From Patescibacteria group bacterium (GTDB taxonomy: Bacteria > Patescibacteriota > Minisyncoccia > Phycocordibacterales > UBA918), in NCBI GenBank assembly GCA_019750255.1, contig JAIEOU010000003.1, positions 19,350-83,349 of the forward strand: a stretch of DNA of 64,000 nucleotides, given 5' to 3'. Positions 3,833 to 61,599 of the stretch are shown here, piece by piece. The notes beneath the pieces were generated by a model, which saw only the letters and a list, made by a program, of their open reading frames with translations, was not told where the DNA came from and did no database searches. The position numbers were made by a program, and so were the translations under genes. Every line of letters starts with the position of its first letter. Position 1 is the first letter of the stretch.

Positions 3833-6562
3833 ATGATAAGCCGCAACGAAATCCGTGTCCGGGCCAGGGAATTTTCAAAAGAATGGGAACGTGAGGTAGA
3901 CGAGGATGCTGAAGCTAAAAGTTTTTGGGACGCTTTCTTTATGGTGTTTGGTGTTTCCCGTCGCCGCGTTGCTGCCTTTGAACACTTCGTCCACAAACAA
4001 GACGGCGGGCAAGGGTTCATAGATGTGCTGTGGCCGGGAGTAATGCTCGCCGAGCACAAGAGCCGCGGCAAGAGTTTGGACCGCGCCTTTAGCCAAGCCA
4101 AGGATTATTTTCCTGGCCTCAAAGACGCCGAGCTCCCACGGTATGTGGTCGTATCTGACTTTGCCCTTATTCGGGTCTACGATTTGGATAACGATACGGA
4201 AGTTGAGTTCTCACTTTCCGACCTCGACAAACACATCGAACTCTTTGGATTTATATCCGGCTACGAAGTGCGTAAGTACGAAGCGGAAGAAGAGGCGAGT
4301 ATAAAAGCAGCAGAGCTCATGGCGAAACTTCACGAAGCGATTGAAGTGACCGGCTATAGCGGGCACGACCTCGAAGTGTTTCTCGTGCGTATACTCTTTT
4401 GTCTCTTTGCCGATGACACCGAGATATTTGAAAAGGGGAGTTTCAGGAGGTACATCGAGCAGCGCACGAGCGAAGAAGGGAGCGACCTTGGATTTCGCCT
4501 CCTTGAACTTTTTGACGTCCTCAACACTCCCGACGCAAAGCGCCAAACCACGCTTGATGAACAGCTGTCCGAGTTCCCCTACATCAACGGCGCAATCTTT
4601 GCTGAACGAATCGGGTCAATCACCCTCGACCACAAAGCACGAGCAACTCTTCTCACGTGTTGTGCCTTTAACTGGTCGGGTATATCAGCAGCTATTTTCG
4701 GCTCACTCTTCCAGGGGGTAATGAATAAGCAAGAGCGTCGTGAACTAGGTGCTCACTATACAAGCGAGATCAATATCATGAAGGTGATTCAACCCCTTTT
4801 CCTCGATGAGCTCTACAACGAATTCGATGCCGCAAAGAAAAGCGCAAAGGCCCTCGATTCCTTCCACCAAAAACTGGCGAGCCTTACCTTCCTCGATCCA
4901 GCCTGCGGCTGTGGCAACTTCCTCGTTACCACCTATCGCGAGCTTCGTCGTCTCGAAATTCAGGTACTGTTGAAAAAGCGGAAGCACAATACGAACACTC
5001 TCCTCGCCTTCGGAGCCGGTGAACTTTCGCGCCTTCATGTAAACCAGTTTTACGGAATTGAGATTGAGGAGTTTCCTGCACTCGTTGCTCGTACTGCCAT
5101 GTACCTGGCCGACCACCAAATGACGCGTGAACTGCAAAAAGAGTTCGGGCAAGAGAAGGCCCGTATCCCACTACAGGAGCCGGCAACCATTGTGCACGGG
5201 AACGCTCTTACCATTGAGTGGGCAGAAGTAATTGCTCCGGAGAAACTTTCGTATATTATCGGCAACCCACCGTTTCTGGGCCAGACCTATCAAAGCAAAC
5301 AGCAGAAAGAAGAAGTCGCAAAGGTACTGTCGGGAATAAAGAAAACAGGCACGCTCGATTTCGTATCTGCGTGGTATGGGAAAGCTGCCGATCTAATGAA
5401 GCAAAATCCTAAGATACAGACTGCACTAGTATCAACTAATTCCATCACCCAAGGTGAGCAGGTGGGTATTCTTTGGAAGTATCTACTGGAGAATGGGGTA
5501 AAAATTAACTTCGCTCACCAGACTTTCCGCTGGACGAACGACGCAAAGGGCAAGGCGGCGGTACACTGCGTCATTGTCGGTTTTGCACTTTTCGATAAAC
5601 CTACCAAATGGCTTTATCTATACTCGAATATAGACGGTGAGGGAACGGAGGTAGGGGTTAAAAACATAAATCCATATCTTGTTGATGGACCAAATATTCT
5701 TCTTGAGAGCCGAAGCAAGCCGGTTTGTAAAGCACCAAAAATGATTCGAGGCAGCCAACCAACGGACGGGGGCAACCTTTTACTCACACAAGAAGAAAAG
5801 GACACACTTGTCATGAATGACCCATTGGTTGCAAAATTCATACGACCATTCTTGATGGGTAACGAATTTATTAATAATATTAAACGTTACTGTCTATGGC
5901 TCAAAGATTGTTCGCCAAATGAACTCAAGGAAATGCCTGAAGTAATGAGACGAATAGAATCCGTTCGTAAAGTTAGACTAGCAAGTAAGAAAGCAGCGAC
6001 CCAAAAGTTAGCGTCTTTACCATTTCTTTTTGGAGAAATTAGAACATCTGAATCATGTTACCTTGCAGTACCAACTGTCTCATCAGAGAACAGAAGTTAT
6101 ATTCCAATCGGATTTTTGCCCCCAGATGTTATTGCGGGAAATAAAATATATTTCATACCCAACGCAAATATTTTTAACTTTGGAATCCTGACTTCAAAGA
6201 TGCACATGGTCTGGACTCGATACACATGTGGCCGGCTGAAAAGTGATTACAACTACTCTAATAAAATTGTCTACAACAACTTCCCGTGGCCAGGGTGTGG
6301 TGCAAATGTCACTGACCTAAGTGTAGAAGCGAAAGAAAAAATCGAAGCCGCAGCGCAAGCAGTACTCGATGCTCGTGCCCAGTTCCCAAACTCATCCCTC
6401 GCCGATCTCTACGATCCACGCACCATGCCACCAGTACTCGTAAAAGCTCACGCCGCCCTCGACCGTGCCGTCGATGCCGCCTACAGCTACCGCGACACTG
6501 GCCTCGACGCCGACCGCATTGCTTTCTTGTTTGAGCGTTACCAAAAAATTATTAATTCTTAA
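3833..6562 (+). CDS. MmeI-family type IIL restriction-modification enzyme (fused endonuclease, N6-adenine methyltransferase and target-recognition domain)
   Basis: The N-terminus matches MmeI (MISRNEIRVRAREFSKEWE...AKSFWDAFFMVFGV...). A PD-ExK-like motif GFIDVLWPGVMLAEHK is present. MTase motif I is FLDPACGCGNFL and motif IV is GNPPFLG. Length is 909 aa versus MmeI at about 919 aa. Confidence 0.85.
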   Translation: MISRNEIRVRAREFSKEWEREVDEDAEAKSFWDAFFMVFGVSRRRVAAFEHFVHKQDGGQGFIDVLWPGVMLAEHKSRGKSLDRAFSQAKDYFPGLKDAELPRYVVVSDFALIRVYDLDNDTEVEFSLSDLDKHIELFGFISGYEVRKYEAEEEASIKAAELMAKLHEAIEVTGYSGHDLEVFLVRILFCLFADDTEIFEKGSFRRYIEQRTSEEGSDLGFRLLELFDVLNTPDAKRQTTLDEQLSEFPYINGAIFAERIGSITLDHKARATLLTCCAFNWSGISAAIFGSLFQGVMNKQERRELGAHYTSEINIMKVIQPLFLDELYNEFDAAKKSAKALDSFHQKLASLTFLDPACGCGNFLVTTYRELRRLEIQVLLKKRKHNTNTLLAFGAGELSRLHVNQFYGIEIEEFPALVARTAMYLADHQMTRELQKEFGQEKARIPLQEPATIVHGNALTIEWAEVIAPEKLSYIIGNPPFLGQTYQSKQQKEEVAKVLSGIKKTGTLDFVSAWYGKAADLMKQNPKIQTALVSTNSITQGEQVGILWKYLLENGVKINFAHQTFRWTNDAKGKAAVHCVIVGFALFDKPTKWLYLYSNIDGEGTEVGVKNINPYLVDGPNILLESRSKPVCKAPKMIRGSQPTDGGNLLLTQEEKDTLVMNDPLVAKFIRPFLMGNEFINNIKRYCLWLKDCSPNELKEMPEVMRRIESVRKVRLASKKAATQKLASLPFLFGEIRTSESCYLAVPTVSSENRSYIPIGFLPPDVIAGNKIYFIPNANIFNFGILTSKMHMVWTRYTCGRLKSDYNYSNKIVYNNFPWPGCGANVTDLSVEAKEKIEAAAQAVLDARAQFPNSSLADLYDPRTMPPVLVKAHAALDRAVDAAYSYRDTGLDADRIAFLFERYQKIINS

Positions 6563-8413: not shown

Positions 8414-8517
8414 CGTACGCTTGTTTCTGCGACCTGGAGCAACGGAAACATTTGGAGTATAGTAAGTACGCAGCGGAGATTTTAATAAACGAAGGACGTA
8501 ATTTACATAATAACTAT

Positions 8518-9150
8518 ATGGGAGTCATCAGACACCCCGATCAACGTGTAGCGATTTTAATTGATACACAGAACCTCTACCACAGTGCGAAGAACCTCTA
8601 CAAGTCCAAAGTAAATTTTGGAGCAGTGGTGAAGCAAGCGCTCGGAGGTCGCAAACTTATTCGCGCCGTGTCGTACGTGGTGAATACCGAAAGTGGGGAA
8701 GAGCAACCATTCTTTGAAGCCCTCGAGAAAGTCGGCATTGAAATTAAAACGAAGGACCTCCAAATCTTTTACGGGGGTGCGAAGAAAGCCGACTGGGATG
8801 TTGGTCTCGCGGTTGACGCCATCAAGCTTGCGCAAAAAGTTGACGCTATTATCTTAGCCTCTGGCGATGGTGACTTTGTCCCGATGGTGGAATACGTAAA
8901 GAGCCAGGGCTGCCAAGTTGAAGCAATTTCGTTTGGTCGTTCCTCATCATCAAAGTTGCGTGAAGTTGTTGACGACTTCATCGATATGGATGAACACCCT
9001 AGTGACTTCCTCATCAGCTACAAAGGTGGCCCGCGCCGAGCTTCATTGGCAGGTCGCACCGAAGGCAGAGGTGAGGGGTCGAGCCGCGCCAAGAATGAGC
9101 TCCGCAACGAAATCCAAAAAGTAGTTGGAACGGACACCGATAATCTTTAG
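8518..9150 (+). CDS. NYN-domain (LabA/YacP-like PIN-fold) putative ribonuclease
   Basis: MGVIRHPDQRVAILIDTQNLYHSAKNLY...AIILASGDGDFVPMVEYVKSQGCQVEAISF is typical of NYN/LabA. The start is taken at an internal ATG of ORF 8452..9150. Confidence 0.6.
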   Translation: MGVIRHPDQRVAILIDTQNLYHSAKNLYKSKVNFGAVVKQALGGRKLIRAVSYVVNTESGEEQPFFEALEKVGIEIKTKDLQIFYGGAKKADWDVGLAVDAIKLAQKVDAIILASGDGDFVPMVEYVKSQGCQVEAISFGRSSSSKLREVVDDFIDMDEHPSDFLISYKGGPRRASLAGRTEGRGEGSSRAKNELRNEIQKVVGTDTDNL

Positions 9151-34139: not shown

Positions 34140-35525
34140 ATGAATCCACTTTCACATCCTTCACCAACCAACAGTATTGTTCGCACTGAACATATTGATG
34201 TGAAGAAATTGTGGGATGACGCCCTCGTCAAAATTGAACTGTCGATTACACCCGCAAATTTTAAAACCTGGTTTCGGGATACCCACATTGTCACGATCGA
34301 AGACAGCACCGTTACCCTCGGTGTTCCGAGCGTGTTTGTACGCGACTGGTTGTCGGATAAATTCCAGTCAATGATCCTCAAAACACTCCGAGACCTTTCA
34401 CCTTTTGTGCGGAGTGTAGAGTATGCCGTCGTTCAGCGTAGCGAACGCAAAAACGAAGGTTCAAAAACCCAAACCGTTAATGCCGCCCTCCCACTTGAGG
34501 ATTACTACATAAACAAAAGCGACAATTTAAACCCCCGGTACTCATTTGATACCTTTGTCGTTGGGCCATACAACGCTCTGGCACATGCTGCGGCAAAAAC
34601 CGTGGCCGACCGGCCTGGTATCGCCTATAATCCACTCTTCATATATGGTAAGACTGGTCACGGTAAGACTCATCTCATCCAAGCGGTGGGGAACCATATC
34701 AAAAAGACCGGAAAGAAAGTATTTTATGTGACAAGTGAACGCTTTGCGGTTGATTACTTTAACTCTCTTCAAAGCGGTTCCGCCAATAGCTTTAAGGATA
34801 AATACCGTCAATATGACGTTCTTATCATGGACGATGTGCAGTTCTTAGCAACTAAGGAAAAGACTCAGGAGGAGCTCTTCCATCTTTTTAACACCCTCCA
34901 CGACACCAATAAGCAAATTGTCTTCTCGAGCGATCAGCACCCAGCCCTACTCTCCGGTCTAGAAGAGCGGCTTAAGTCACGCTTTGTGCAGGGAATGATT
35001 GTTGATATTCCCACACCCGACCCGGAGTCACGCGTGGCTATTTTGCGCGCCAAGGCTGCTCAGAACAGCATTACTCTGTCTGATGACGTAGTTGAACACC
35101 TTGCTCACACTATTGAAGGCAATATTCGCGAACTTGAAGGGGCCTTAAATACGATTATGTGTCAGTCACAGCTCCTGGGGCGCATGGTATCGCTCGACGA
35201 GGTGAAGGCCATCATCAAGAACAATTCACGCCCACGCAAAACCCTAGCTATCACTGATGTGGTTGATAAAGTAGCTCGTTACTTTGATATTGATCAGGCC
35301 AGCATCTACGAAAAAACGCGTCGAAAGGAGGTGGTTCGGCCGCGCCAAATTATTATGTACATTTTGCGTGAAGATTTTCAGGTGTCATATCCCGCAATTG
35401 GGAAGAAACTAGGCGGTCGCGACCACACGACGGTAATCCACTCTTGCGAGAAGATAAAGGGGGAACTAAAAGAGAACCCTGACCTCGAAGAGGAAATATC
35501 CCAGATTCGATTACTTTTAAAATAA
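34140..35525 (+). CDS. dnaA: Chromosomal replication initiator protein DnaA
   Basis: AAA+ Walker A GKTGHGKTHL, DnaA box-binding C-terminal domain. 461 aa. Confidence 0.95.
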   Translation: MNPLSHPSPTNSIVRTEHIDVKKLWDDALVKIELSITPANFKTWFRDTHIVTIEDSTVTLGVPSVFVRDWLSDKFQSMILKTLRDLSPFVRSVEYAVVQRSERKNEGSKTQTVNAALPLEDYYINKSDNLNPRYSFDTFVVGPYNALAHAAAKTVADRPGIAYNPLFIYGKTGHGKTHLIQAVGNHIKKTGKKVFYVTSERFAVDYFNSLQSGSANSFKDKYRQYDVLIMDDVQFLATKEKTQEELFHLFNTLHDTNKQIVFSSDQHPALLSGLEERLKSRFVQGMIVDIPTPDPESRVAILRAKAAQNSITLSDDVVEHLAHTIEGNIRELEGALNTIMCQSQLLGRMVSLDEVKAIIKNNSRPRKTLAITDVVDKVARYFDIDQASIYEKTRRKEVVRPRQIIMYILREDFQVSYPAIGKKLGGRDHTTVIHSCEKIKGELKENPDLEEEISQIRLLLK

Positions 35526-35819
35526 CGCTTCCTTCTGGTAGCGTTATTTTATACCCAAACCCTGGGGATAAACGCCACATAAATCCTTTAATAGCTCTGT
35601 AGAAGTCTCCTAATTACTCAAAAAAATGCCTCTCTTCTGCCTTAGTTTTCCCCAGACGATAGCCAACAAAATATTTCTCCCCAGACACAAAAACACAATC
35701 ACCAGCTCCACCAACACTATACACAAGAATGCTCACTCATTTGCGCCTTAAAGTACAACATATAATCGAGATATGCACACTTCCACAGCCCTAATAATAG
35801 AGAGTAAAATACTTTTAAA
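35526..35819. promoter_or_regulatory. AT-rich dnaA-dnaN intergenic region with DnaA-box-like motifs (candidate DUE/oriC part)
   Basis: ctggggataaac and ctatacacaag approximate DnaA boxes. The region is low-GC. Confidence 0.3.
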
Positions 35820-36914
35820 ATGAAAATAACTACTCCTTATCCCACTCTTGTTCAAGCGCTCGATATCATTAGTCGGATTAGCACCAAACATGTTACGTTG
35901 CCGGTACTTCAGTGTGTCCTTATAAGTGTAGTTGATAAAAAGATTACCCTCAGAGCTACTAATCTTGAGATTAGTGTTGAGCTTACCCTTGATGGCGTGG
36001 TCGAAGACGATGGGATAATTGCCGTGCCGGCCCAGACACTACAGCAGAGTGTCCAGTTTTTAAATGAAAAGGATGTCACCTTGCGAGTGGAGGAAGGTGT
36101 GCTTGTTATTGAAGGGGCGCACACGCAGACCTCAATTAAATCAATTCCCCATGATGAGTTTCCAAATATCCATAAAATCGACACTGCGGGGGTAGTAGTG
36201 AATGCTGAAATGTTTGCGTATGGAATTAAAACCGTAGCGTTTGCGGCTTCACAGACCTCAATTAAACCAGAGCTCGGAAGTGTGTTTGTTCAACAGAAGC
36301 GCGAACATTCTCTTACGTTCGTTGCGACTGATTCATTTCGATTGATGGAAAAATCAGTTCCTCAAAAAGGGGTGGTACTGGCTCAGTCGTTCTTGTTGCC
36401 GCAGAAGAACGCTCTTGAGTTAGCACGTGTATGCGAAATTGTTGGTGGTACACCAACGTTAATCATTAACGAAAACCAGTGTAGTCTCGTTTTTGCTTCT
36501 GGGGTGTATATAAGCTCGCGTTTGGTTACTGGATCGTTTCCTGATTATGAACAAATCATACCGAAAGAATATGTGACCACCGTGACTATTCTTAAAGAAG
36601 ATCTGCAACGCGCGTTTAAGAAAACTAATATATTTCTTAATAAGTTTTTGCAGGTAGCTATTACACTTACTGAGAGACACCTCACGGTTTCAGCTACTAA
36701 CAGCGAGGTGGGTCACACTACCGATACGCTAAAGGCTCAGGTGGAGGGGCAAGAACTTAATCTTAGTTTCAATCAGCAGTACGTCATTGACCCGCTCTCC
36801 CATATTCAAGATGAGAGTCTGATTCTAAAGTTTGCTGGTATCGGTCGGCCACTCGTACTCCATGGCGTTACTGATCCAAGTTTGCGTTATCTAGTAATGC
36901 CGATGAATAAATAA
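35820..36914 (+). CDS. dnaN: DNA polymerase III beta sliding clamp
   Basis: 364 aa with three-domain beta-clamp pattern, immediately downstream of dnaA. Confidence 0.9.
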   Translation: MKITTPYPTLVQALDIISRISTKHVTLPVLQCVLISVVDKKITLRATNLEISVELTLDGVVEDDGIIAVPAQTLQQSVQFLNEKDVTLRVEEGVLVIEGAHTQTSIKSIPHDEFPNIHKIDTAGVVVNAEMFAYGIKTVAFAASQTSIKPELGSVFVQQKREHSLTFVATDSFRLMEKSVPQKGVVLAQSFLLPQKNALELARVCEIVGGTPTLIINENQCSLVFASGVYISSRLVTGSFPDYEQIIPKEYVTTVTILKEDLQRAFKKTNIFLNKFLQVAITLTERHLTVSATNSEVGHTTDTLKAQVEGQELNLSFNQQYVIDPLSHIQDESLILKFAGIGRPLVLHGVTDPSLRYLVMPMNK

Positions 36915-53434: not shown

Positions 53435-53528
53435 GCCCACTATTGTACCTCAAGAGCCAAGCGAGCGCTCTTCTGTCTTGCTTTTTTATGGATGGTGCGG
53501 TACAGTTCCATCACTTAAATCAATCAAT

Positions 53529-53792
53529 ATGCCAATTACCCGTGGAGCAAAGAAGGCCGTTCGTCAGCAAGCGCGCAAGCGTATCTTCAACATTCGTCGC
53601 AAGAATGTCTTGACTGACAGTGTGAAGGATGTACAGAAAGCTATCACTGCCGGTGATGGCGCAAAGGCAAAAGACCTATTGAGTAAGGCCTACCAGGCTA
53701 TCGATAAGGCCGAAAAGCGTGGTGTTATAAAGAAGAACACCGCAGCCCGCAAGAAGTCTCGTCTTACCGCCCGCGTCAAGGCAGCGAAGTAA
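53529..53792 (+). CDS. rpsT: 30S ribosomal protein S20
   Basis: MPITRGAKKAVRQQARKRIFNIRRKN... at 87 aa (internal ATG of ORF 53394..53792). Confidence 0.9.
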   Translation: MPITRGAKKAVRQQARKRIFNIRRKNVLTDSVKDVQKAITAGDGAKAKDLLSKAYQAIDKAEKRGVIKKNTAARKKSRLTARVKAAK

Positions 53793-53893
53793 AGACTAAG
53801 AACAAACATACAAAAGCAGCGGCACCTACGGTGCCGCTGCTTTTGTTAGGCACAATAAAACGAACGCCGCCGGGGTGAGCCGGCGGCGAATTT

Positions 53894-54304
53894 TTAAGGG
53901 CGAGTTTCAGAGCGGGAGGAGCAGCCGAGATGGAAGAGACCGATCAATTTCCCGGTTTCATCTTCAATGCGGACTCTGCCACCAATTTTGTACATGCTCT
54001 CTGGTACTTGTATTGTCGTCTCTGGCGCCAGCATACGAAACCAGTGTTGTTCATCCCCGCCCCGGCGACCAGGAAGTAGTCCCACAAACCGTGCTGTGAG
54101 AGTGACGGACGTGTTACGAATAGTAACGACGTTTGGGGTGCCGCTAGCGATGCACCCCCGCACCGTTATGTGCTCAGCGGGTGTCTCAAGCTGGAATGTT
54201 GTGTTGGCGAGGACCTGATGTCGTTCTTCCTGTCCTGCGTCACTGATGCAGCTGTAGATGTTACCCACGAATGCGAGGATAACAAGTAATACGACGATGC
54301 GCAT
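53894..54304 (-). CDS. Hypothetical secreted/lipoprotein
   Basis: Signal peptide MRIVVLLVILAFVGNIYSC. Confidence 0.35.
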   Translation of the reverse strand: MRIVVLLVILAFVGNIYSCISDAGQEERHQVLANTTFQLETPAEHITVRGCIASGTPNVVTIRNTSVTLTARFVGLLPGRRGGDEQHWFRMLAPETTIQVPESMYKIGGRVRIEDETGKLIGLFHLGCSSRSETRP

Positions 54305-54478
54305 GGGGACCTCCCGAGGTTGTTGTCCGTCTACGGCCTATCCTATGTCCATAAGGAATCGTTGTAAATAGGGCATTTTATGGAGACTTAATTGACCCGT
54401 GGTATAGATTGCTTCAATAGGATAAACGGCAGATGTCACAAGGGTGGATGTAAACCCAATGCCGAGCGGTAAAAATAG

Positions 54479-54814
54479 TTATTTTTTCCTATACGAAGTC
54501 CATAAGCAATCGAGCGCATCAGTTGCCATATGAAAAAGCAAACCCACTGCAATCATCTGAATGTAAACATTGGGAACAAATAGAAGTCCACCGTAAATAC
54601 AGATTGCAACATAGGAATGAAGCGGGTGAAACCCAATGCTGCAGCGATTGGGGTCAAAAATTGGTCTGGCAAGTAAATGGTCAAGATCAACCAACATAGT
54701 GGCAATCATTATGGTCCAGGCAATATGCCATTGTTCGTTAAAAAGAACCCAGGCTAGAAGACCGGGCGCGACAAAATGTAAGCTGTAGTGGATGACGGCT
54801 TGGAGCTTTGGCAT
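54479..54814 (-). CDS. Membrane-bound metal-dependent hydrolase-like protein (YdjM/DUF457-like)
   Basis: His/Asp-containing TM helices (LDHLL, HPLHS, HMATD). The start is taken at internal MPKLQ. Confidence 0.35.
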   Translation of the reverse strand: MPKLQAVIHYSLHFVAPGLLAWVLFNEQWHIAWTIMIATMLVDLDHLLARPIFDPNRCSIGFHPLHSYVAICIYGGLLFVPNVYIQMIAVGLLFHMATDALDCLWTSYRKK

Positions 54815-54889
54815 AAATTCACTATAGCAGGGGAGAGGCCTAGTAATCTTATTTTCGTTACTTAGGGATGCGGTCACGCATACAGAAAT

Positions 54890-55440
54890 TTAAAATGGAT
54901 GTGGATTCGGTCACGAATCACTAACTATATTTCATCGCTCCGCTTGAAATCTAGTAAGTGTTCTCGACCCCAGATCACTCGCCTCCGGCATCGCTGCGCT
55001 TTTCGAATCACAACATAAGACGCATTAAATCTGTGGATTCGGTCACTCTCATGGATACTTTGTTTCGCTTAGGCTCACAAATTATCTCATTCGCTCGACC
55101 CCCACTCGAGTCGCCCAACTTTCGCTTCGCTTCAGTCGGGTCCCCGCCGCTTCGGTTCGAATCCCACATCCCCGCGCTCGCACAAACAAAAAGAACCCTG
55201 CCGGGTTCTTTTTGGTGCTCGCGGAGGATGTGGGATTCGAAACTTACAGTTTCAGTACACCTTGTCACTATTTTGTTTCCTCTCCTCACAAAATAGTTGG
55301 CAAGGTCTTCGAATCCTTGCAACGCTTTTCTTTCAGAAAAGCTGCAACACATCCTTCTTGCCTCACTTCGTTCGTCTGCGGAGGATGTGGGATGACGTTC
55401 GGCTAGTGATAATAGGTCAGGGAGACTACTAAATTACGAA
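54890..55440. repeat. Repeat-rich region holding family A and family B repeat copies, two inverted tRNA-Ser 3'-end copies forming a palindrome (55148-55245), and a third partial copy at 55375
   Basis: ggattcggtcac...attcgctcgacccc (55031-55100) is similar to 57354-57425. gcggaggatgtgggattcgaa (55220-55240) is identical to the 3' end of tRNA-Ser at 57083-57105. Confidence 0.55.
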
Positions 55441-55444
55441 ATGA

Positions 55445-56308
55445 TTACGGATTACACCACTGACACTCTCCAGGTTCAGCCGAGTTTTTATTTTCTATGG
55501 GTTGGGTTTCTTGATAACTACATTTTTTACAACAACGTACTGTTTCTTTTACCAAATCGGTGGCTAACCCACAGCCATTACAAGGCAATCCCTTAACTAC
55601 ATCAGTAATAACAAAACCAGGAGTAGTGCATTTTGGGCATATACTTTTGCAGTTTTTTATGAGGTCAAGGGTAGCTTGCTTGATACCGTCCATTCGCTTT
55701 GGGCAACGGTGGGCTCGCATATCTGTTTCGATAAAAACAGACTTGGTGCTCCATTTTAATAAAAGCTTTTCAGACATTGTCCGCAAGTCGTCCTCTGTAG
55801 TAATTTCCTTGTAGATGTGTCTACTGCTCGTTTCTGACTGCCTCAAAATAACTCCTTGTTTTGGAAAACCCCACGAGCAAGCGACATCCACAGCTTCTTC
55901 GGGAGTATGTACAATTTGACTTCGAACTTGTGAGTTACTGTTACGGAAATGCCCGACAATTTCCAAATCATTTTTGATATCAATTAACACTACAATTTCA
56001 AGGTTACTTTGGACAAAAGGAATTGTAGGATGATTGCCGAAGCTGCCTTCGCTAGAAAACCCTAAATCCATCCCTGTTAGCATCATTGCTGCTTGAGCTT
56101 TTTTTCGAGCAGCTTCAAGTTGATTACCCGCCCGCTTTATATCTCTTGTAAACGTACCAAAGCGGTCAGTATTAAAATCGTGAGGAACTGTAATGGTAAT
56201 ACCGAGTCCCTCTTTTAATATAGGGGAAATAACACTTTCCTTATTATGCATTGTAGCCAGAACACCCGTTCTTTTTTCCCAATCCCCAATAATGTCCGTT
56301 GATGGCAT
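55445..56308 (-). CDS. Hypothetical protein with C-terminal Cys-rich (multi-CxxC) region, carried on the islet
   Basis: 287 aa. The C-terminal 80 aa contain CPKRM, CKSICPKC, CNGC, CCKKC and CQWC. AT-rich codon usage. Confidence 0.45.
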   Translation of the reverse strand: MPSTDIIGDWEKRTGVLATMHNKESVISPILKEGLGITITVPHDFNTDRFGTFTRDIKRAGNQLEAARKKAQAAMMLTGMDLGFSSEGSFGNHPTIPFVQSNLEIVVLIDIKNDLEIVGHFRNSNSQVRSQIVHTPEEAVDVACSWGFPKQGVILRQSETSSRHIYKEITTEDDLRTMSEKLLLKWSTKSVFIETDMRAHRCPKRMDGIKQATLDLIKNCKSICPKCTTPGFVITDVVKGLPCNGCGLATDLVKETVRCCKKCSYQETQPIENKNSAEPGECQWCNP

Positions 56309-56398
56309 TTATTGATTATAATGCTTGATTGCTTTCTGGACACCCTCTATTGTGTCTTATAAAAATATGATGAGCATAGCTACTTATTTGCGATAAAT

Positions 56399-56683
56399 TT
56401 AAAAATCAAACAATTCTCCTAGCATTGACTTATGTTTCTGTGTACCACCTCGGTTGTAATTATTATCATCGTCATCATCACGGTCATATTGCCGGCCATT
56501 CGTAGTATTGCTTTGAGGGTTACGGACTTGTTCTTGAGCTGGTTGTTGGGCACTGGTTTTCTCAATCAACTTATCTAGCTCCCCACGGTCTAACCAAACC
56601 CCACGACACTGCGGACAGTAATCGATTTCAACACCCTGTCGTTCAGATAGTAATAGCTGAGTATTATCATTTGGGCAGTTCAT
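56399..56683 (-). CDS. TFIIB-type zinc-ribbon domain protein with acidic/Gly-Arg tail
   Basis: MNCPNDNTQL...YCPQCRGVWLDRGELDKLIE is the zf-TFIIB-like pattern. The C-terminus is DDDDDNNYNRGG. Confidence 0.55.
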   Translation of the reverse strand: MNCPNDNTQLLLSERQGVEIDYCPQCRGVWLDRGELDKLIEKTSAQQPAQEQVRNPQSNTTNGRQYDRDDDDDNNYNRGGTQKHKSMLGELFDF

Positions 56684-57082
56684 ATTTTTTAAATTAATTT
56701 ACAAGACTAAACCAATAACAGAATTTAAAATTGATTGTATCAAGTCTAAAATCATAATTATAATTGCTTCTATTTGGTCAAAAATTGATGCGATTTGTTC
56801 CATACTTTATGCATTGATAATAACATGACAGATTTAAAAATAATAATTCTGTAAATTTACCCTTGAAATTACTCTAACTGCAATTTTAATACGCTTCATA
56901 ACAGTATCTATTCCAGCTAGCTTGCTATTGTAGTATTCGTATTTACATTCTGAGTTCCCACTCTAGGATTCGGACACGTCTCGCGTGCACTAGACCCTTT
57001 ACAAAGTTTCCGTGTCGCAGACGGGTACGGAAATCTTAAAAATTTTATGGCTTTAAATAAAGCTCTTCGTGCTAGCACGACT

Positions 57083-57172
57083 TGGCGGAGGATGTGGGAT
57101 TCGAACCCACGAGACCTTTTACAGTCTGGCGGTTTAGTAAACCGCTGCTTTCAACCACTCAGCCAATCCTCC
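57083..57172 (-). tRNA. tRNA-Ser-type (long variable arm, encoded CCA) with apparent anticodon ACU
   Basis: Manual fold: acceptor GGAGGAT/ATCCTCC, anticodon stem GCGGT/ACCGC, loop TTACTAA, 18-nt variable arm, T-arm GTGGGTTCGAATCCCAC, and 3' GCCA. Confidence 0.6.
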
Positions 57173-57289
57173 GAAGTTCGCCCGTTCAAAAGAACGGGGC
57201 GACCACTAGTATAGGGGTAAAAGGCGAAACTGTTAACAGGGGAGGGGAAAATGATAGAGGCAGAGTGTTTCGGTTACTCTGACGGATTT

Positions 57290-57480
57290 ATTCTACTTCG
57301 CTAGCGCTTCTTAGGGATTCGGTCCTTACTGGAGCAGTACTCCAATTTATAAAATAAGGATTCGGTCACGCTTATGGATATTTAGTTTCGCTTCGCTCAC
57401 AAAATAGCATTCGCTCGAACCCGCAGAGGGACTCTCTCCTTACAGGAGCAGTACCCCAATTGGCTCGTTTATTTCGCTAG
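57290..57480. repeat. Family B dispersed repeat copies between the two tRNA-Ser genes
   Basis: ggattcggtcacgcttatggatatttagtttcgcttcgctcacaaaatagcattcgctcgaaccc matches 55031-55100. A partial copy lies at 57310. Confidence 0.5.
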
Positions 57481-57594
57481 CTCATAAACGAGCTCAATCG
57501 GGCTTCGGATCCCTCCCGTGAGTGACTTTGAGTCACTCACTTCTCTCCGCGAACAAAAATGGCACCCAAGGGAGGGTGCTAATTTTTGTATTCG

Positions 57595-57681
57595 CGGAGA
57601 GAGAGGGATTCGAACCCTCGAAGAGCTTACACCCTTAACAGTTTTCAAGACTGCCGCCTTCAACCACTCAGCCATCTCTCC
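57595..57681 (-). tRNA. tRNA-Ser (anticodon UGA)
   Basis: Manual fold: acceptor GGAGAGA/TCTCTCC, anticodon stem GCAGT/ACTGT, loop CTTGAAA, long variable arm, T-arm GAGGGTTCGAATCCCTC. Confidence 0.7.
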
Positions 57682-57790
57682 AGATATGTTGTTGTCCGTA
57701 CTCTACTGCAGAGCTGCGCTCTACATTAGCAACAGATACTAGCAAAAACCACCTAAAAAGTACACCTGCCATATGCTACAATCTTTTTAA

Positions 57791-58258
57791 ATGGATACCC
57801 CGCGTGCTGTAAGTTGGGAAGCTCCCGAGTTTCACTACACCGAGAAAAAAGGTGACTGGTATTTTGCGGTCGCACTTATCGCTGCTGGTTGTGTGGTTGC
57901 GGCCCTTCTGTTGGGGAATACACTCTTTGCTTTACTGTCTGTCATCTCTGGCATTGCCCTCGCCATTGCAGCCGGCAAGCGGCCGCAGATTGTACCGTTT
58001 GCGGTAACTGTGCGAGGGGTGCGTATAGGTAGTGAGCTATACCCCTTTGGGCATCTCGCGGCGTACCATATTGATGAGGAAGATCCACGCGGCCCTCAAA
58101 TGATACTGCTCGCGAAGCGCAAGTTTATGCCCCTCCTTACCATGCCGCTCCCGGCTCAATATCTTGATGATATCGAGGACATCATGAAGGGTAAAATAGA
58201 AGAAAGATACCTCGAAGAGCCCTTCCTGCTAAAGGTACTGGAATATTTCGGATTTTAA
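57791..58258 (+). CDS. Hypothetical membrane protein
   Basis: Two TM helices near the N-terminus. 155 aa. Confidence 0.4.
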   Translation: MDTPRAVSWEAPEFHYTEKKGDWYFAVALIAAGCVVAALLLGNTLFALLSVISGIALAIAAGKRPQIVPFAVTVRGVRIGSELYPFGHLAAYHIDEEDPRGPQMILLAKRKFMPLLTMPLPAQYLDDIEDIMKGKIEERYLEEPFLLKVLEYFGF

Positions 58259-58299
58259 GGTATTATCGTGCTCACGTTGCATCTGTAGCGTGAAGAATC

Positions 58300-58372
58300 G
58301 CTCCCATAGTTTAATGGATAGAATGCAGGTTTGCGGTATCTGCGATCCAGGTTCGATTCCTGGTGGGAGCAC
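58300..58372 (+). tRNA. tRNA-Arg-like with apparent anticodon GCG
   Basis: Manual fold: acceptor GCTCCCA/TGGGAGC, anticodon stem CAGGT/ATCTG, loop TTGCGGT, T-arm CCAGGTTCGATTCCTGG. Highly similar to the tRNA-Arg(UCU) at 62374. Confidence 0.6.
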
Positions 58373-58615
58373 AAATCAGCCGACCCAAATGCGAATGCAT
58401 TTGGGTCGTTGCTGTTTGTAGCTCCCACCAGGAATCGAAAGACGCAAGCCGGGGACCCTTTGGGCCGGCGCGTCGGGGTCGAGAGTGCTTAGATTTTTAT
58501 GAGCAAAGCGAAATAAAAAGCTTAGTAACTCGTGACCGAATTTCCTCGTGGGTGTTACGTTATGTTGCTTGCATGTTCTAGCTCCATAACCTACCTATGT
58601 GCTATTCTTCCCGTC

Positions 58616-58996
58616 ATGAGAAGTATGGGTATAGATTACGGTACCAAGCGCGTCGGCGTTGCTTTAACCGACGAGTCGGGGCTTATGGGCTTTCCTCATG
58701 GGGTCCTGCCAAACGATGGGAAGCTTCTCGCGAGCCTCGTGGCACTTATAGAAACAAAAAAAGTTGGGCAGGTGGTGCTTGGGCATTCGGTAGGGAAGGA
58801 CGGTCAGCCCAATAAAGTGCAGGCAGCCATTGATGAATTGATAACCGACCTTACCCTAGCTGTCGGCATACCCATTCACCTTGAGCCCGAGCATTACTCG
58901 ACTCAGGCCGCGCTCAGACTGCAGGGAAGAAACGATGCAACGGATGCCGCCGCCGCGACCTTGCTGCTTAATAGCTTTTTGGAGCGAACCAACTAA
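58616..58996 (+). CDS. yqgF: Putative pre-16S rRNA nuclease / Holliday junction resolvase-like YqgF (RuvX)
   Basis: MGIDYGTKRVGVALTDE... and RuvC-like fold motifs. Confidence 0.8.
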   Translation: MRSMGIDYGTKRVGVALTDESGLMGFPHGVLPNDGKLLASLVALIETKKVGQVVLGHSVGKDGQPNKVQAAIDELITDLTLAVGIPIHLEPEHYSTQAALRLQGRNDATDAAAATLLLNSFLERTN

Positions 58997-59339: not shown

Positions 59340-59423
59340 GGGTGGGCACATTAAACGAAACGAGATGTGGGTTCAAGCCCTCGGTTGCGGTTAGAAGGAC
59401 GTATACTAAAGGCACATTCTCGT

Positions 59424-60518
59424 ATGAGCGTTCTTTCTTTTTTGTCGACATGTATTCCGCCTCCGCGCAGCCTTGCTTTGCCAAGTGTGGGTGTTGATAT
59501 TTCTGATACATCGATGAAGTACGTTGCTTTTGACGGTAGGCTCCGACCAGGGGCGAAGCAACAGCTACGATTTTGGGGTGACATCGATATCCCTGCCGAT
59601 GTACTGAGTCGTGGAGAAGTTAACGATGTGGCTAAACTGACGGCGGTACTCGCTGAATTTAAGGCTAAAACTGGGGCCGAATTTGTGCGCGTATCACTGC
59701 CGGAAGAGCGGGCGTATCTGTTTGAGACTGAAATTAAGCGCGACATACCGCTCGCTGAAATTCGAAATACCTTAGAGTTTCGACTAGAAGAAAACGTACC
59801 GATTCCATCACGCGAAGTATTTTTTGATTATGAAGTACTGCCTCACCATAGTAATGAACGGTCAGTGCAGGTTGTGGTAGCCGCCTATGCGCGAGACACT
59901 ATTTTGAAGTACCACGAGGCTTGTTTGGTTGCTGGATTAACGCCACTCTCGTTTGAAGTTGAGGCGCAAGCGATGGCTCATGCTGTAGTAGATAATAATG
60001 ACAAGGGGACAGTCATGATTGTCGACTTTGGAAAGACCCGAACTGGGGTGGGGATTGTGACAAACGGGACATTGATGTACACATCGACCATTGATATTGG
60101 TGGCGGAAATCTTTCGCAAGCGATGCGTAAAGTGCTTGGTGACCGTCCCGAAGAAGAACTTACCCAGATAAAAAATACGGAAGGACTGATCAGGGGCACC
60201 GATGATTCGCGCACACACGATGCCGTAATCACTACCGTGTCGGTGATTAAAGATGAGATTGCTGCTCGTATGCAGTACTGGCACGTAAAAGAAACACCGC
60301 ACCCTGCAAGGCGGATCAATACCATTATCTTATGCGGGGGAAGCGTTAACCTAAAAGGTCTGCCTGAGTACCTTAGTGAAACCCTCGGGGTTCCGTGCGA
60401 AAGAGCTAATGTGTGGCGCAACGTTTTTTCATTTGACGAAGAAGTGCCTCCAATAGAACGACGGTTTTCGTATGGCTTTGCCACCGCCATCGGGTTAGCA
60501 CTCCAGCGTGTCACCTAA
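59424..60518 (+). CDS. pilM: Type IV pilus assembly protein PilM (actin-like ATPase fold)
   Basis: GVDISDTSMKYVAF... and MIVDFGKTRTGVGIV pattern. Followed by pilN and pilO. The exact start is uncertain. Confidence 0.65.
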   Translation: MSVLSFLSTCIPPPRSLALPSVGVDISDTSMKYVAFDGRLRPGAKQQLRFWGDIDIPADVLSRGEVNDVAKLTAVLAEFKAKTGAEFVRVSLPEERAYLFETEIKRDIPLAEIRNTLEFRLEENVPIPSREVFFDYEVLPHHSNERSVQVVVAAYARDTILKYHEACLVAGLTPLSFEVEAQAMAHAVVDNNDKGTVMIVDFGKTRTGVGIVTNGTLMYTSTIDIGGGNLSQAMRKVLGDRPEEELTQIKNTEGLIRGTDDSRTHDAVITTVSVIKDEIAARMQYWHVKETPHPARRINTIILCGGSVNLKGLPEYLSETLGVPCERANVWRNVFSFDEEVPPIERRFSYGFATAIGLALQRVT

Positions 60519-60523
60519 TTACT

Positions 60524-61072
60524 ATGATAAATCTCATTCCTCCAGAAGCGCGGTCACGCATCCTTGTCGAATATTGGGTTCGAGTGGTGACGGCATGGCT
60601 CTCTCTCCTCGCGATTGCTGCAACGGTAGTAGGGGCGCTTTTGTTTCCAGCGTATGTACTTGTAACCTCGCAGGTAAAGAGCTCTGCCGCTGAAGCTGAT
60701 AAAGTTCGCGCACGAGTGGCTGAACTTGATACTACTACCAAGGTGCTCGATTCGGCTACTGAAGAGGCGCGAATGATTGTCGCCGCCGCACAAGAGCCCG
60801 TCCTTACGGAGGTCGTAGCGATTGTGGAAGGCTTGCTTCCGACCGGAGTTGAGGTTTCTGCGTATTCGCTCGCGCGACTGGGAGCTGGGGTTGCTCCTGT
60901 GGTTGTGCGCGGCACAGCGACTACTCGATCCGCCCTGGCAAGTTTTCGCGAAGGGTTGGTGAACCACCCGAAGATCGTAAAGGTTGATTTGCCAATCTCA
61001 AACTTTGCCAAAGACCGCGACCTTATTTTTACTGTTACTCTAACTATGAGTAGCACCACACCAGCACTATGA
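60524..61072 (+). CDS. pilN: Type IV pilus assembly protein PilN
   Basis: MINLIPPEAR N-terminus, then a single TM helix. 182 aa. Confidence 0.7.
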   Translation: MINLIPPEARSRILVEYWVRVVTAWLSLLAIAATVVGALLFPAYVLVTSQVKSSAAEADKVRARVAELDTTTKVLDSATEEARMIVAAAQEPVLTEVVAIVEGLLPTGVEVSAYSLARLGAGVAPVVVRGTATTRSALASFREGLVNHPKIVKVDLPISNFAKDRDLIFTVTLTMSSTTPAL

Positions 61073-61599
61073 CCCTCACACCCCGCACAAAACAATATTT
61101 CGTCTTAGCGCTACTGGTAGCAGCGACCGCTGTGCTCGCTGCACTTTATTTGCTTGTCCAGATTCGGGGGCAGGGAGCACGGCTCGAGGCGAATAGTATT
61201 GTGATTAATGAAAGTTCGGCACAGCTTGAAGCTACGACACGCTCGAAGCGCTTGATTGATGAAACCGAAGAAGAGCGGGCTATGCTCCGGCGGTCATTTT
61301 TCAAAGAGTCCTCAGACAGTCTTGATTTCTTGACGCAGCTCGAAACCCTGGCTCCGCAATTTGACCTTGAGCTCACCGAAATTATCCTTGAGGAGATAAG
61401 TAATCCGGCCACTCCAGGGAAAAGCGAAATGCTTTTTAGGTTTGGATATCGTGGGAGTAAATCAGCCGTGTTCGATTTCACTAAACTACTTGAGGTGTTG
61501 CCATATCACAGTCGTCTTCAATCCGTCACGCTCGAGTCAAAAAGTGACGAGGAGTGGGAGGGCCGGCTTGAGGTGCGTGTAACGGTCAAAACCTTATGA
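61069..61599 (+). CDS. pilO: Type IV pilus assembly protein PilO-like
   Basis: N-terminal TM helix plus coiled coil. Overlaps pilN by 4 nt. Confidence 0.55.
   Translation: MTLTPRTKQYFVLALLVAATAVLAALYLLVQIRGQGARLEANSIVINESSAQLEATTRSKRLIDETEEERAMLRRSFFKESSDSLDFLTQLETLAPQFDLELTEIILEEISNPATPGKSEMLFRFGYRGSKSAVFDFTKLLEVLPYHSRLQSVTLESKSDEEWEGRLEVRVTVKTL

Follow-up and report, generated by a model that had tools for sequence, protein, structure and literature searches.

The 64-kb window analyzed here (the 64,000 nucleotides at positions 19,350 to 83,349 of contig JAIEOU010000003.1, from the Patescibacteria group bacterium assembly GCA_019750255.1) contains, at the 3' end of a tRNA-Ser gene with the unusual anticodon ACT (ACU), a low-GC islet that lies among several copies of that same tRNA end, and this raises the question of where the DNA came from and how it reached its present place. 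An earlier note, made from the letters alone, had taken two of these copies for the attL/attR signature of a tRNA-targeted integration. Comparisons with other genomes provided clear evidence that the islet DNA is foreign and of horizontal origin. We consider it probable that 1.7–1.85 kb of low-GC DNA from another Paceibacteria lineage was inserted into the 3' end of tRNA-Ser(ACU) and that the original end was displaced as a 16-nucleotide (nt) copy. Taken alone, the islet would represent an ordinary example of genes transferred horizontally to a tRNA locus, with cargo families of no known function, but its analysis also brought to light two unexpected by-products, a family of structured units in tRNA trailers and a conserved tRNA-Ser(ACU) gene.

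The 21-mer GCGGAGGATGTGGGATTCGAA is present in exactly two copies in the window, at 55221–55241 and at 57085–57105, in direct orientation, and gave no match in 100 dinucleotide-preserving shuffles even when up to three mismatches were allowed. The exact repeat and the identity of its right copy with the tRNA-Ser 3' end, both described in the earlier note, were thus confirmed, the left copy being shifted by one position from 55220–55240. The third, shorter copy, previously placed at 55376–55391, is also real and covers 16 nt; the first 16 nt of the proximal 21-mer (57085–57100) have the same sequence. The parts of the islet and its repeats are as follows (contigs and loci from other genomes or samples are designated by L numbers):

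57083–57172, minus strand: intact tRNA-Ser gene with anticodon ACT (ARAGORN; Rfam tRNA model, 59.2 bits).
57085–57105, no strand assigned: proximal copy of the 21-bp repeat, consisting of the T-loop, the 3' strand of the T-stem, the 3' strand of the acceptor stem, G73 and a C (exact match in the repeat search).
56869–57084, minus strand: tRNA-proximal non-coding arm of the insert, 216 bp, GC content 0.403; the homology to L004 stops at 56868.
55394–55444, minus strand: distal non-coding end of the insert (...CACTAGCCGAACGTC), from the alignment with L003, L004 and L001.
55378–55393, no strand assigned: 16-nt direct copy (GCGGAGGATGTGGGAT; ATCCCACATCCTCCGC in tRNA orientation), from the repeat search.
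55221–55241, no strand assigned: distal copy of the 21-bp repeat, a unit-end copy of the tRNA 3' end with the native trailer directly after it (exact match; colinearity with L159).

The last 16–21 nt of tRNA-Ser(ACU), together with the CA of its CCA, come from the insert side. The gene now ends in ...CCGCCA, of which the CA belongs to the proximal arm of the insert, and is followed by a palindromic hairpin (TCGTGCTAGCACGA, 57067–57080) and a T-rich run. In contrast, the 16-nt copy has no encoded CCA, like the neighboring tRNA-Ser(UGA) gene, and non-CCA sequence follows each of the 16-nt copy, the distal 21-mer and tRNA-Ser(UGA). Incoming DNA has therefore replaced the 3' tip of tRNA-Ser(ACU). 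The proximal arm, which is not common to L003, L004 and L205, further contains a decayed GTGTCCGAATCC module at 56966–56977, as detected by motif scans, and a promoter-like site (TTAACA-17-TATACT, 57236–57208) lies by the tRNA gene.

The composition of the islet differs from that of its surroundings. Between the two 21-mers (55242–57084), the GC content is 0.388, with a range of 0.384–0.388 given for the foreign DNA, compared to 0.504 for the whole window and 0.50–0.52 for the 5-kb flanks, a gap of 0.10–0.12 that bears out the low GC content reported earlier. Scanning metagenomes with the tRNA's anticodon arm recovered L159, in which a tRNA-Ser(ACT) gene, 93% identical to that of the window and identical in its 21-nt 3' end, joins a terminator hairpin directly, followed by an inverted copy of the acceptor end and then by a distal trailer (1190–1324) that is 77% identical to window positions 55026–54897. 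From position 55220 downward, the window is colinear with L159, beginning there at the base after the tRNA 3' end and continuing into the trailer, and the window minus the islet and one repeat is colinear with L159 across the junction. L159 is the empty site for the islet, in a distant relative, and the comparison proposed in the earlier note thus yielded a tRNA-Ser(ACU) gene joined directly to the same trailer.

The islet holds a cassette of three co-oriented genes, and not two as described before, a 34-residue open reading frame (ORF) having been missed:

56699–56803, minus strand: orf34, a small hydrophobic ORF of 34 amino acids (aa) (MEQIASIFDQIEAIIIMILDLIQSILNSVIGLVL) and the first gene of the cassette; in L004 and L205, too, it precedes the zinc-ribbon gene.
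56399–56683, minus strand: Zn_ribbon_TFIIB protein (PF13453), 94 aa, with a poly-Asp/RGG C-terminal tail (Pfam E-value 1.1e-19).
55445–56308, minus strand: DUF6671 protein (PF20376), 287 aa (Pfam E-value 9e-59).

The cassette DNA (55431–56868) is 90.5% identical to the L003 and L004 contigs, which stem from other samples and have unrelated flanks. The GC content of these contigs, 0.40–0.44, matches that of the cassette, and the source that they represent is apparently a lower-GC member of the Paceibacteria. The PilM-family proteins of L003 and of the window share 23% aa identity, the orthology of the two not being established, as against 92% for the DUF6671 proteins. In relatives of the window, the gene order is PilM, YqgF, tRNA-Arg(gcg), a 155-aa protein (h155), tRNA-Ser(tga), a variable stretch of 1.4–8 kb, S20, RuvA and Mur ligase, and the islet sits in this variable stretch between tRNA-Ser(tga) and S20. 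None of the six relatives that share the h155/tRNA-Ser(tga) neighborhood encodes a DUF6671 protein. One syntenic relative, L205 (tRNA-Arg 89% identical, h155 51% at the aa level, tRNA-Ser(UGA) and its trailer 72% at the nt level), does carry the cassette, with 79.6% nt identity and its three genes co-oriented, beside tRNA-Ser(UGA). Finally, two Logan contigs, L001 and L002 (DRR851322 and DRR851323; 99.75% identical), join the cassette to the 16-nt copy and to 136 bp beyond, and thus provide an independent assembly of this part. Both start at window position 56431 and end, at 55236 and 55238, inside the 21-mer, which suggests a branching of the assembly graph and hence alternative contexts of the cassette in those samples.

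Larger structured segments, hereafter called trailer units, contain the copies of the tRNA 3' end and are distributed in the window as follows:

55242–55377, minus strand: body of trailer unit 1, GC content 0.419, RNA fold z = −3.1, contiguous with the cassette in L001/L002.
55154–55220, minus strand: start of trailer unit 2, of terminator type, native and orthologous to the L159 unit (inverted repeats; L159 alignment).
54866–55110, minus strand: rest of the native trailer (repeat search, motif scans).
57313–57681, minus strand: tRNA-Ser(UGA) gene (57594–57681) with its own trailer unit, used as a comparator within the window (ARAGORN, repeat search).

Read from the 16-nt copy, unit 1 consists of an inverted acceptor-like copy, a hairpin, an inverted T-loop (GGATTCGAAG), another hairpin and an arm, GGTGTACTGAAACTGTAAGT, which precedes the distal 21-mer as it does the unit-end copy in L205, is identical to the arms of L021 and L029 and includes a covarying hairpin at about 55238–55254 (tRNA orientation). 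The third copy is not incidental. It is followed by AGACGAACGAAGTGAGGCAAG and an inverted acceptor copy, in the same way as the genuine 3' ends of tRNA-Ser in L014 and of tRNA-Lys in L029 and L039, and its end-to-end distance of 157 nt to the 21-mer falls in the range of the units, 136–209 nt. The 16-nt copy, the following 136 bp and the 21-mer together make one canonical trailer unit. Since the 16-nt copy occupies the tRNA-end position of this unit, one unit length before the 21-mer, it would be the displaced original 3' end of the tRNA.

Unit 2 has a terminator-like hairpin at about 55186–55214 and, at 55154–55171, 18 nt of the tRNA 3' end in inverted orientation, a copy that the earlier note had missed; a weak Rfam match to a retroviral primer-binding site at this unit was set aside, as it reflects only complementarity to a tRNA 3' end. 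The remaining native trailer contains degenerate copies of the tRNA 3' end (GTGACCGAATCC...) at 54866–54877, 54903–54914 and 55035–55046, and an 80-bp segment of it (55032–55110) is repeated at 57355–57425. The unit of tRNA-Ser(UGA), which is orthologous to those of L205 and L016, comprises an inverted copy (57542–57559), a hairpin (57521–57538), two arm hairpins (57439–57454 and 57325–57340) and decayed 3'-end copies.

From these data, we infer an order of events in which tRNA-Ser(ACU) would once have been followed by unit 1 and unit 2. In the simplest reading, a 1691-bp insert (55394–57084) would have entered the tRNA 3' end with a duplication of 16 nt and, as it brought along a tRNA 3' end, would have regenerated the gene with an encoded CCA and an insert-borne hairpin. 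The original 3' end would have been pushed downstream and kept as 55378–55393, still attached to its canonical trailer unit, and the distal 21-mer would be an ordinary unit-end copy after the hairpin. The insertion may have proceeded from a circular intermediate by a Campbell-type single crossover within the shared tRNA 3'-end sequence, presumably catalyzed by a tyrosine-type integrase acting in trans or since lost, or by short-homology recombination. An integrase-catalyzed crossover of this type is the established route for tRNA islands, in which an element that integrates at a tRNA gene restores that gene, and a displaced fragment remains as the mark of the island end (PMC4383910; PMC9897764).

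The occurrence of trailer units was analyzed by scanning 167 tRNA genes from 93 Paceibacteria loci for a 17-nt copy of their own 3' end, with at most two mismatches, within 800 nt. Such a copy was detected downstream of 25 of 159 tRNAs, compared to one of 166 upstream, used as a control (Fisher p = 1e-7), the scanned loci having been chosen by synteny with the window and many of the 25 positives being orthologous loci rather than independent events. In other phyla and phage arrays, a downstream copy was found for 3 of 172 tRNAs (Fisher p = 4e-6). The tRNAs followed by copies are Arg-gcg, Lys-ttt and Ser-tga/gct/act, and the first copy starts 119–192 nt past the tRNA end in 20 of the 25 cases. 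Loci with trailer units include L014, L016, L021, L029, L039, L050, L080, L082, L086, L139, L159 and L205, with two units in tandem in L014 and three in L080.

The units share a common architecture. After the tRNA 3' end come either a terminator hairpin or ACGAACGAAGTGA as a motif, the acceptor 3' strand in inverted copy and a hairpin of variable sequence, then an inverted T-loop (GGATTCGAAG), another hairpin, an arm and the direct copy of the tRNA 3' end, over a span of about 140–210 nt end to end. The arm reads (TATCCA.. or GACAAC..)GTAC-TG-NNN-CTGTAAG-N'N'N'-CG, or has the hairpin-less variant GTGAC-CGAATCC, and a covarying 6-bp hairpin with a UGUAA loop lies just before the direct copy. 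In L205, for example, tRNA-Ser(UGA) is followed by a 151-nt structured block, by the sequence ...GGGGTACTGAAACTGTAAGT and by 21 nt that repeat the end of this tRNA exactly and are not the same sequence as the 21-mer of the window; the cassette comes 55 nt after this unit-end copy.

Covariation was tested on 23 arms picked on their flanking motifs and not on complementarity. In the arm hairpin, 95.7% of the cells pair, against 65.3 ± 2.8 in shuffles and 24–48% in slid registers, and 35 double-sided changes were counted, against 9.7 ± 2.2 in shuffles. Among five Ser-type units, compensatory changes affect 22 of the 54 pairs of the consensus, and the split inverted copy serves as pairing partner of the tRNA 3' end. 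The folds are stable (z = −13.9 for the L205 unit and −3.1 for unit 1 of the window). Units attached to the same tRNA are recognizably orthologous between genera, whereas those of different tRNAs in one genome differ, each matching the acceptor sequence of its own tRNA. These conserved, covarying and stably folded units are therefore conserved structured elements rather than random decaying scars. A search of Rfam 15 with window positions 53500–58800 and with L205, L159 and L139 returned tRNA matches and sub-threshold chance matches, and no family covering the units. T-box, tmRNA, retron ncRNA and integron attC identities were considered and dropped, as they have no Rfam support, no reverse transcriptase or IntI was seen and the architecture differs; they serve as analogies only.

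The earlier note had opposed a general tRNA-trailer repeat family to an att duplication, and this opposition holds by half: the distal 21-mer and its preceding hairpin do belong to such a family and are not necessarily the scar of this insertion, while the att reading stands as regards foreign DNA at a regenerated tRNA 3' end with a displaced fragment. The trailer units of Arg, Lys and Ser tRNA genes, with their inverted and direct 3'-end copies and their absence from Rfam, are in our opinion a more interesting lead than the islet. Tentatively, the repeats around the islet may represent an undescribed, lineage-wide class of structured tRNA-attached elements, with the islet as a cargo-carrying instance and the units as landing pads for cassettes. 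If true, the units would mark entry points of cassettes in genomes with few known mobile elements. They could form a processed tRNA-trailer RNA family, and hence a new class of RNA, with a role for instance in the processing of tRNA precursors or as stable RNAs, or a new type of recombination site, folded and single-stranded like attC or the attP of the CTX phage, or they could be miniature integrase-less integrative elements. In the window, tRNA-Arg(gcg) (58300–58372, plus strand) is also followed, at a distance of 46 nt, by its 3' end in inverted orientation (TAGCTCCCACCAGGAAT), without a direct copy, which looks like a partial trailer unit.

Several observations weigh against the insertion history proposed above. 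L159 is no close relative, with a GC content of 0.44 and different neighboring genes; the cassette and the hairpin-plus-copy module are found on different sides in the window and in L205; and no independent contig covers the tRNA-proximal junction (57084/57085). The DUF6671 gene lies about 0.05 below the GC content of its own locus in two of four other genomes, and part of the GC contrast is therefore intrinsic to the gene. No integrase was found in the islet, nor in the 64-kb window by a weak test (phmmer with one actinobacterial prophage integrase, and Pfam on a few ORFs), and searches of IMG/VR and of metagenome loci revealed no intact integrase-bearing relative of the element. Moreover, the GC content of unit 1 (0.419) is nearer that of the insert than that of the host trailers (0.475–0.50), and L159 is devoid of unit 1, so that the order of events is ambiguous and the whole of 55242–57084 may have come in one piece. 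The 1843 bp between the 21-mers would then be, as in the reading of the earlier note, a single element integrated at the tRNA 3' end with a 21-bp core, and the 16-nt copy and unit 1 would be internal baggage, for example a displaced tRNA end and its trailer taken from a previous host. We regard this as unlikely, even though the 21-mers are perfect and longer than the 16-mer, the unit directly joined to the L159 tRNA is the one located after the distal 21-mer in the window, and L001/L002 hold the cassette and unit 1 together: a hairpin followed by a 3'-end copy is the normal unit end at 25 cargo-free tRNA genes, so that the distal 21-mer needs no insertion, the third copy is exactly at the tRNA-end position of a canonical unit, and Arg and Lys tRNAs of cassette-free genomes have arms identical to the one by the 21-mer. 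With either order of insertion, nested direct tRNA-end repeats surround the foreign DNA.

A serious rival, whose probability we also consider to be low, does without any site-specific recombinase and supposes homologous or short-homology exchange with related Paceibacteria, for instance after DNA uptake, with the tRNA-Ser gene and the trailer copies as anchors. Besides the lack of an integrase in the weak test mentioned above, it would account for the finding that the cassette adjoins tRNA-Ser-derived sequences in at least one other genome and probably in two, with conserved repeats derived from tRNAs around it in the window and L205, and probably also in L003. In the latter, the motif GCCGAAC(G/T)TC is also present beside a tRNA-3'-like sequence after the cassette, where GCCGAACTTCATCCCTCATGCCGCCGC resembles GCCGAACGTCATCCCACATCCTCCGC of the window, and the next genes encode ComF-like and PilM proteins, the same genes that follow tRNA-Ser(ACT) in L159. 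The decayed trailer-type module in the proximal 216 bp of the insert likewise resembles a donor tRNA trailer, and PilM/N/O-like ORFs of a type IV pilus, of which only PilM was compared, are encoded at 59367–61599. However, 16–21 nt is short for RecA-dependent exchange, the direct duplication of an anchor is the signature of a single (Campbell) crossover on a circle and not of an allelic replacement, and no donor with the exact arrangement was seen. As for an assembly artefact, in which a fragment of a co-occurring low-GC organism would have been stitched in through the 16–21-mer shared by tRNA-Ser 3' ends, the Patescibacteria sequence is of metagenome type, the repeat has the length of a common smallest k-mer (21), and L001 and L002 end inside it; moreover, the exact DUF6671 protein is on record only in these short Logan contigs, and exact look-ups of three host proteins (h155, DUF6122 and Mur ligase) found none on record, and thus no independent assembly of the host locus. 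We nevertheless hold it to be very improbable: the inserted fragment would need the same repeat on both sides, so that another genome would possess this very biological structure, the cassette is linked to the third copy and unit 1 independently in L001/L002, the tRNA is complete with a normal score, and the removal product is colinear with L159. Least probable of all is the vertical inheritance of a native region with an intrinsically low GC content and normal trailer repeats. It would fit with the commonness of DUF6671 in ordinary contexts of Patescibacteria chromosomes, the cassette of the syntenic L205 in the same neighborhood and orientation, and the generality of trailer repeats in the lineage, but not with 90.5% DNA identity of the cassette to a genome whose PilM-family protein, of unestablished orthology, is 23% identical, the lack of the cassette in six syntenic relatives, the GC gap, or the duplication of the tRNA 3' end around the cassette and the change of its 3' flank from CCA-less to CCA-encoding.

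With an insertion at the tRNA 3' end as the favored reading, the islet can be compared to known mobile elements. Cis-mobilizable elements (CIMEs) are att-flanked remnants of ICEs (integrative and conjugative elements); integrative mobile elements exploiting Xer recombination (IMEX) use the host XerCD at dif. By analogy, the islet likewise appears flanked by copies of a recombination site without a recombinase of its own, and such elements can accumulate in tandem at a regenerated site; its target is in contrast a tRNA 3' end and not dif or an ICE att site. With genomic islands integrated at tRNA genes by tyrosine integrases, as catalogued by Islander (PMC4383910), the islet shares an insertion in the 3' part of the tRNA, a complete regenerated tRNA, a displaced direct 3' fragment at the far end, an atypical composition with horizontal origin and the absence from a relative, and its nested copies suggest a tandem accretion. 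Of the five features of such islands, four were thus found (complete tRNA, displaced fragment, empty site, atypical composition), which of the 16-nt and 21-nt copies marks the insertion event being ambiguous, and the fifth, an integrase, was not. The islet also differs from these islands in its very small size (1.7–1.85 kb) and its Patescibacteria host, and one of its att-like repeats is part of a conserved structured trailer element found at island-free tRNA genes as well. Displaced tRNA fragments (PMC9897764) are similarly partial 3' copies left by integrated elements beside a complete tRNA gene, whereas many copies in the lineage of the window are preceded by a covarying hairpin, keep a fixed spacing of about 160 nt and are conserved from one genus to another, which is unexpected for decaying scars. 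The islet is probably best filed as an integrase-less tRNA islet, decayed or mobilizable in trans, of a kind already known. It records that genes have recently passed between Patescibacteria lineages differing in GC content via tRNA-Ser loci, with no recombinase carried, in reduced genomes whose acquisition of genes is little known and in which such elements are poorly documented.

The two larger cassette proteins correspond to the earlier description of a 287-aa multi-CxxC protein and a 94-aa zf-TFIIB-like protein with a poly-Asp/RGG tail, and are full-length, high-scoring members of Pfam families, neither of which has a known function. DUF6671 matches its profile over positions 1–217 of 217 with 199.3 bits (cut-off 23.8), and the zinc-ribbon protein over positions 1–41 of 41 with 69.9 bits (cut-off 22). 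The latter is 87% identical at the aa level to the neighboring gene product in L004 and is paired with DUF6671 in L205 too. orf34 is 94% identical to its L004 counterpart, compared to 77% for the flanking intergenic DNA; of its codon differences, five are synonymous and one is non-synonymous. It is part of the cassette and likely represents a small membrane peptide. For DUF6671, 37 synonymous and 23 non-synonymous differences from L004 were counted. As these codon differences indicate, the cassette genes appear to be under constraint.

The DUF6671 protein has an N-terminal enzyme-like alpha/beta domain followed by two Cys4 zinc ribbons (C224/227/243/246 and C260/263/282/285). Among 2497 homologues, the nearest named ones are from Patescibacteria, and a cyanobacterial contamination, considered as the origin of the islet, was dropped on this ground. 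An alignment of 54 homologues showed many invariant polar residues, T19, H21, K23, D48, R59, K70, S86-E87-G88, E104, D110, E116, E194, D196, R198, H200 and R205, as well as eight invariant cysteines in four CxxC pairs. The structure prediction that the earlier note had called for gave a confident AlphaFold2 model (pLDDT 92.8, pTM 0.88). Foldseek searches with this model returned weak matches, the best of them being YjjX (1u5w, E-value 6e-4, probability 1.0), followed by Ham1/ITPA and viral inosine triphosphatases (ITPases), with low TM-scores of 0.24–0.35 of the query. The ITPase-like fold (YjjX, Ham1/RdgB/ITPA, Maf), to which DUF6671 would add its two zinc ribbons, is the most consistent of these weak matches, and we take it as a lead and not as an assignment. 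The N-terminal motif VLATMHNKE presumably resembles the Ham1/RdgB motif ATGNxGKxxE, which we take only as a lead, and a comparison with PDB sequences gave zinc-ribbon noise and no sequence-level link to a solved structure. Our guess, based on the model, is that DUF6671 may be an enzyme that binds or hydrolyzes nucleotides, with an ITPase-like fold and a zinc-ribbon module, and the family now has, beside this biochemical guess, a confident structural model.

The association of orf34, the zinc ribbon and DUF6671 is special to the closest clade, the trio being found only in the window, L004 and L205 (DUF6671 identity of at least 78% at the aa level). Distant DUF6671 homologues (at most 76%) stand alone in ordinary chromosomal contexts, without a zinc-ribbon partner and with neighbors such as PadR, TrmB, glyoxalase, EamA and opposite-strand pyrimidine genes. 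The phage-related or defense function suggested by the earlier note found no support: PADLOC-DB v2 yielded no family at E ≤ 1 for any of the three cassette proteins, NCBIfam and PHROGs gave nothing significant (best PHROGs E-value at least 0.012), DUF6671 is absent from IMG/VR contigs, and one zinc-ribbon homologue with 47% identity was found in a viral contig. At the DNA level, blastn of the islet returned no match among 50,697 phage records and, among plasmids, only 74–89-bp matches to the zinc-ribbon domain of unrelated bacteria; a 24-mer from the insert end had no match in IMG/VR. In agreement with the earlier note, no recombinase was recognized among the ORFs of the islet, and the DUF6671 and zinc-ribbon proteins gave no recombinase match in Pfam, NCBIfam, PADLOC or PHROGs. 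A literature search on DUF6671 found nothing.

In parallel, tRNA-Ser genes with A34 were found in 12 of 80 metagenome loci matched by the anticodon-arm pattern (L092, L114, L122, L131, L139, L142, L153, L159, L160, L165, L166 and L169). Eleven of the 12 have the same Patescibacteria-type T-arm and one a variant, their GC content ranges from 0.39 to 0.57, and seven also carry a separate tRNA-Ser(GCU) gene on the same locus. tRNA-Ser(ACU) is a conserved gene of this lineage and not a one-off mutation; a literature search on bacterial tRNA-Ser(ACU) found no paper. The 21-mer itself also occurs, as an att-like site, in a high-GC provirus contig (L088, 7271–7291), beside a 471-aa integrase-like ORF, which shows that the same tRNA-Ser 3' end serves as an integration target in unrelated bacteria. 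Other matches in IMG/VR were confined to phage tRNA arrays carrying tRNA-Ser(UGA).

Beyond the islet, the window encodes PolA, Mur ligase, RuvA, S20, YqgF, PilM/N/O-like proteins, DnaA and DnaN. For the Mur ligase, the identity is 83% with the protein from a Candidatus Nomurabacteria metagenome-assembled genome (MAG) and 60–70% with those from many Paceibacteria/Kaiserbacteria MAGs. The closest relative in the genome collection, L007 (Mur ligase 83% at the aa level), stops 275 bp past the S20 gene, short of the site. Near the cassette, the window encodes a DUF6122 protein (54479–54877). An uncalled ORF upstream of the cassette in L004 (440–745) shows 56% aa similarity to it, a 72% homologue lies near RuvA in L026, and DUF6122 thus seems to recur in this variable neighborhood.

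Two other low-GC regions, at 34–37 kb and 5–7 kb, were considered as integrase-bearing islands and rejected, as they hold dnaA/dnaN and an MmeI-type enzyme with an ion channel, respectively. The dnaA and dnaN genes (34140–36914) lie in a stretch with a GC content of 0.44 at the minimum of the cumulative GC skew, probably the replication origin region and not an island. The other enzyme is a full-length, 909-aa type IIL restriction-modification enzyme of the MmeI family, encoded at 3833–6562 on the plus strand in a slightly low-GC stretch, and a 232-aa NYN-domain protein is encoded at 8452–9150 on the plus strand.

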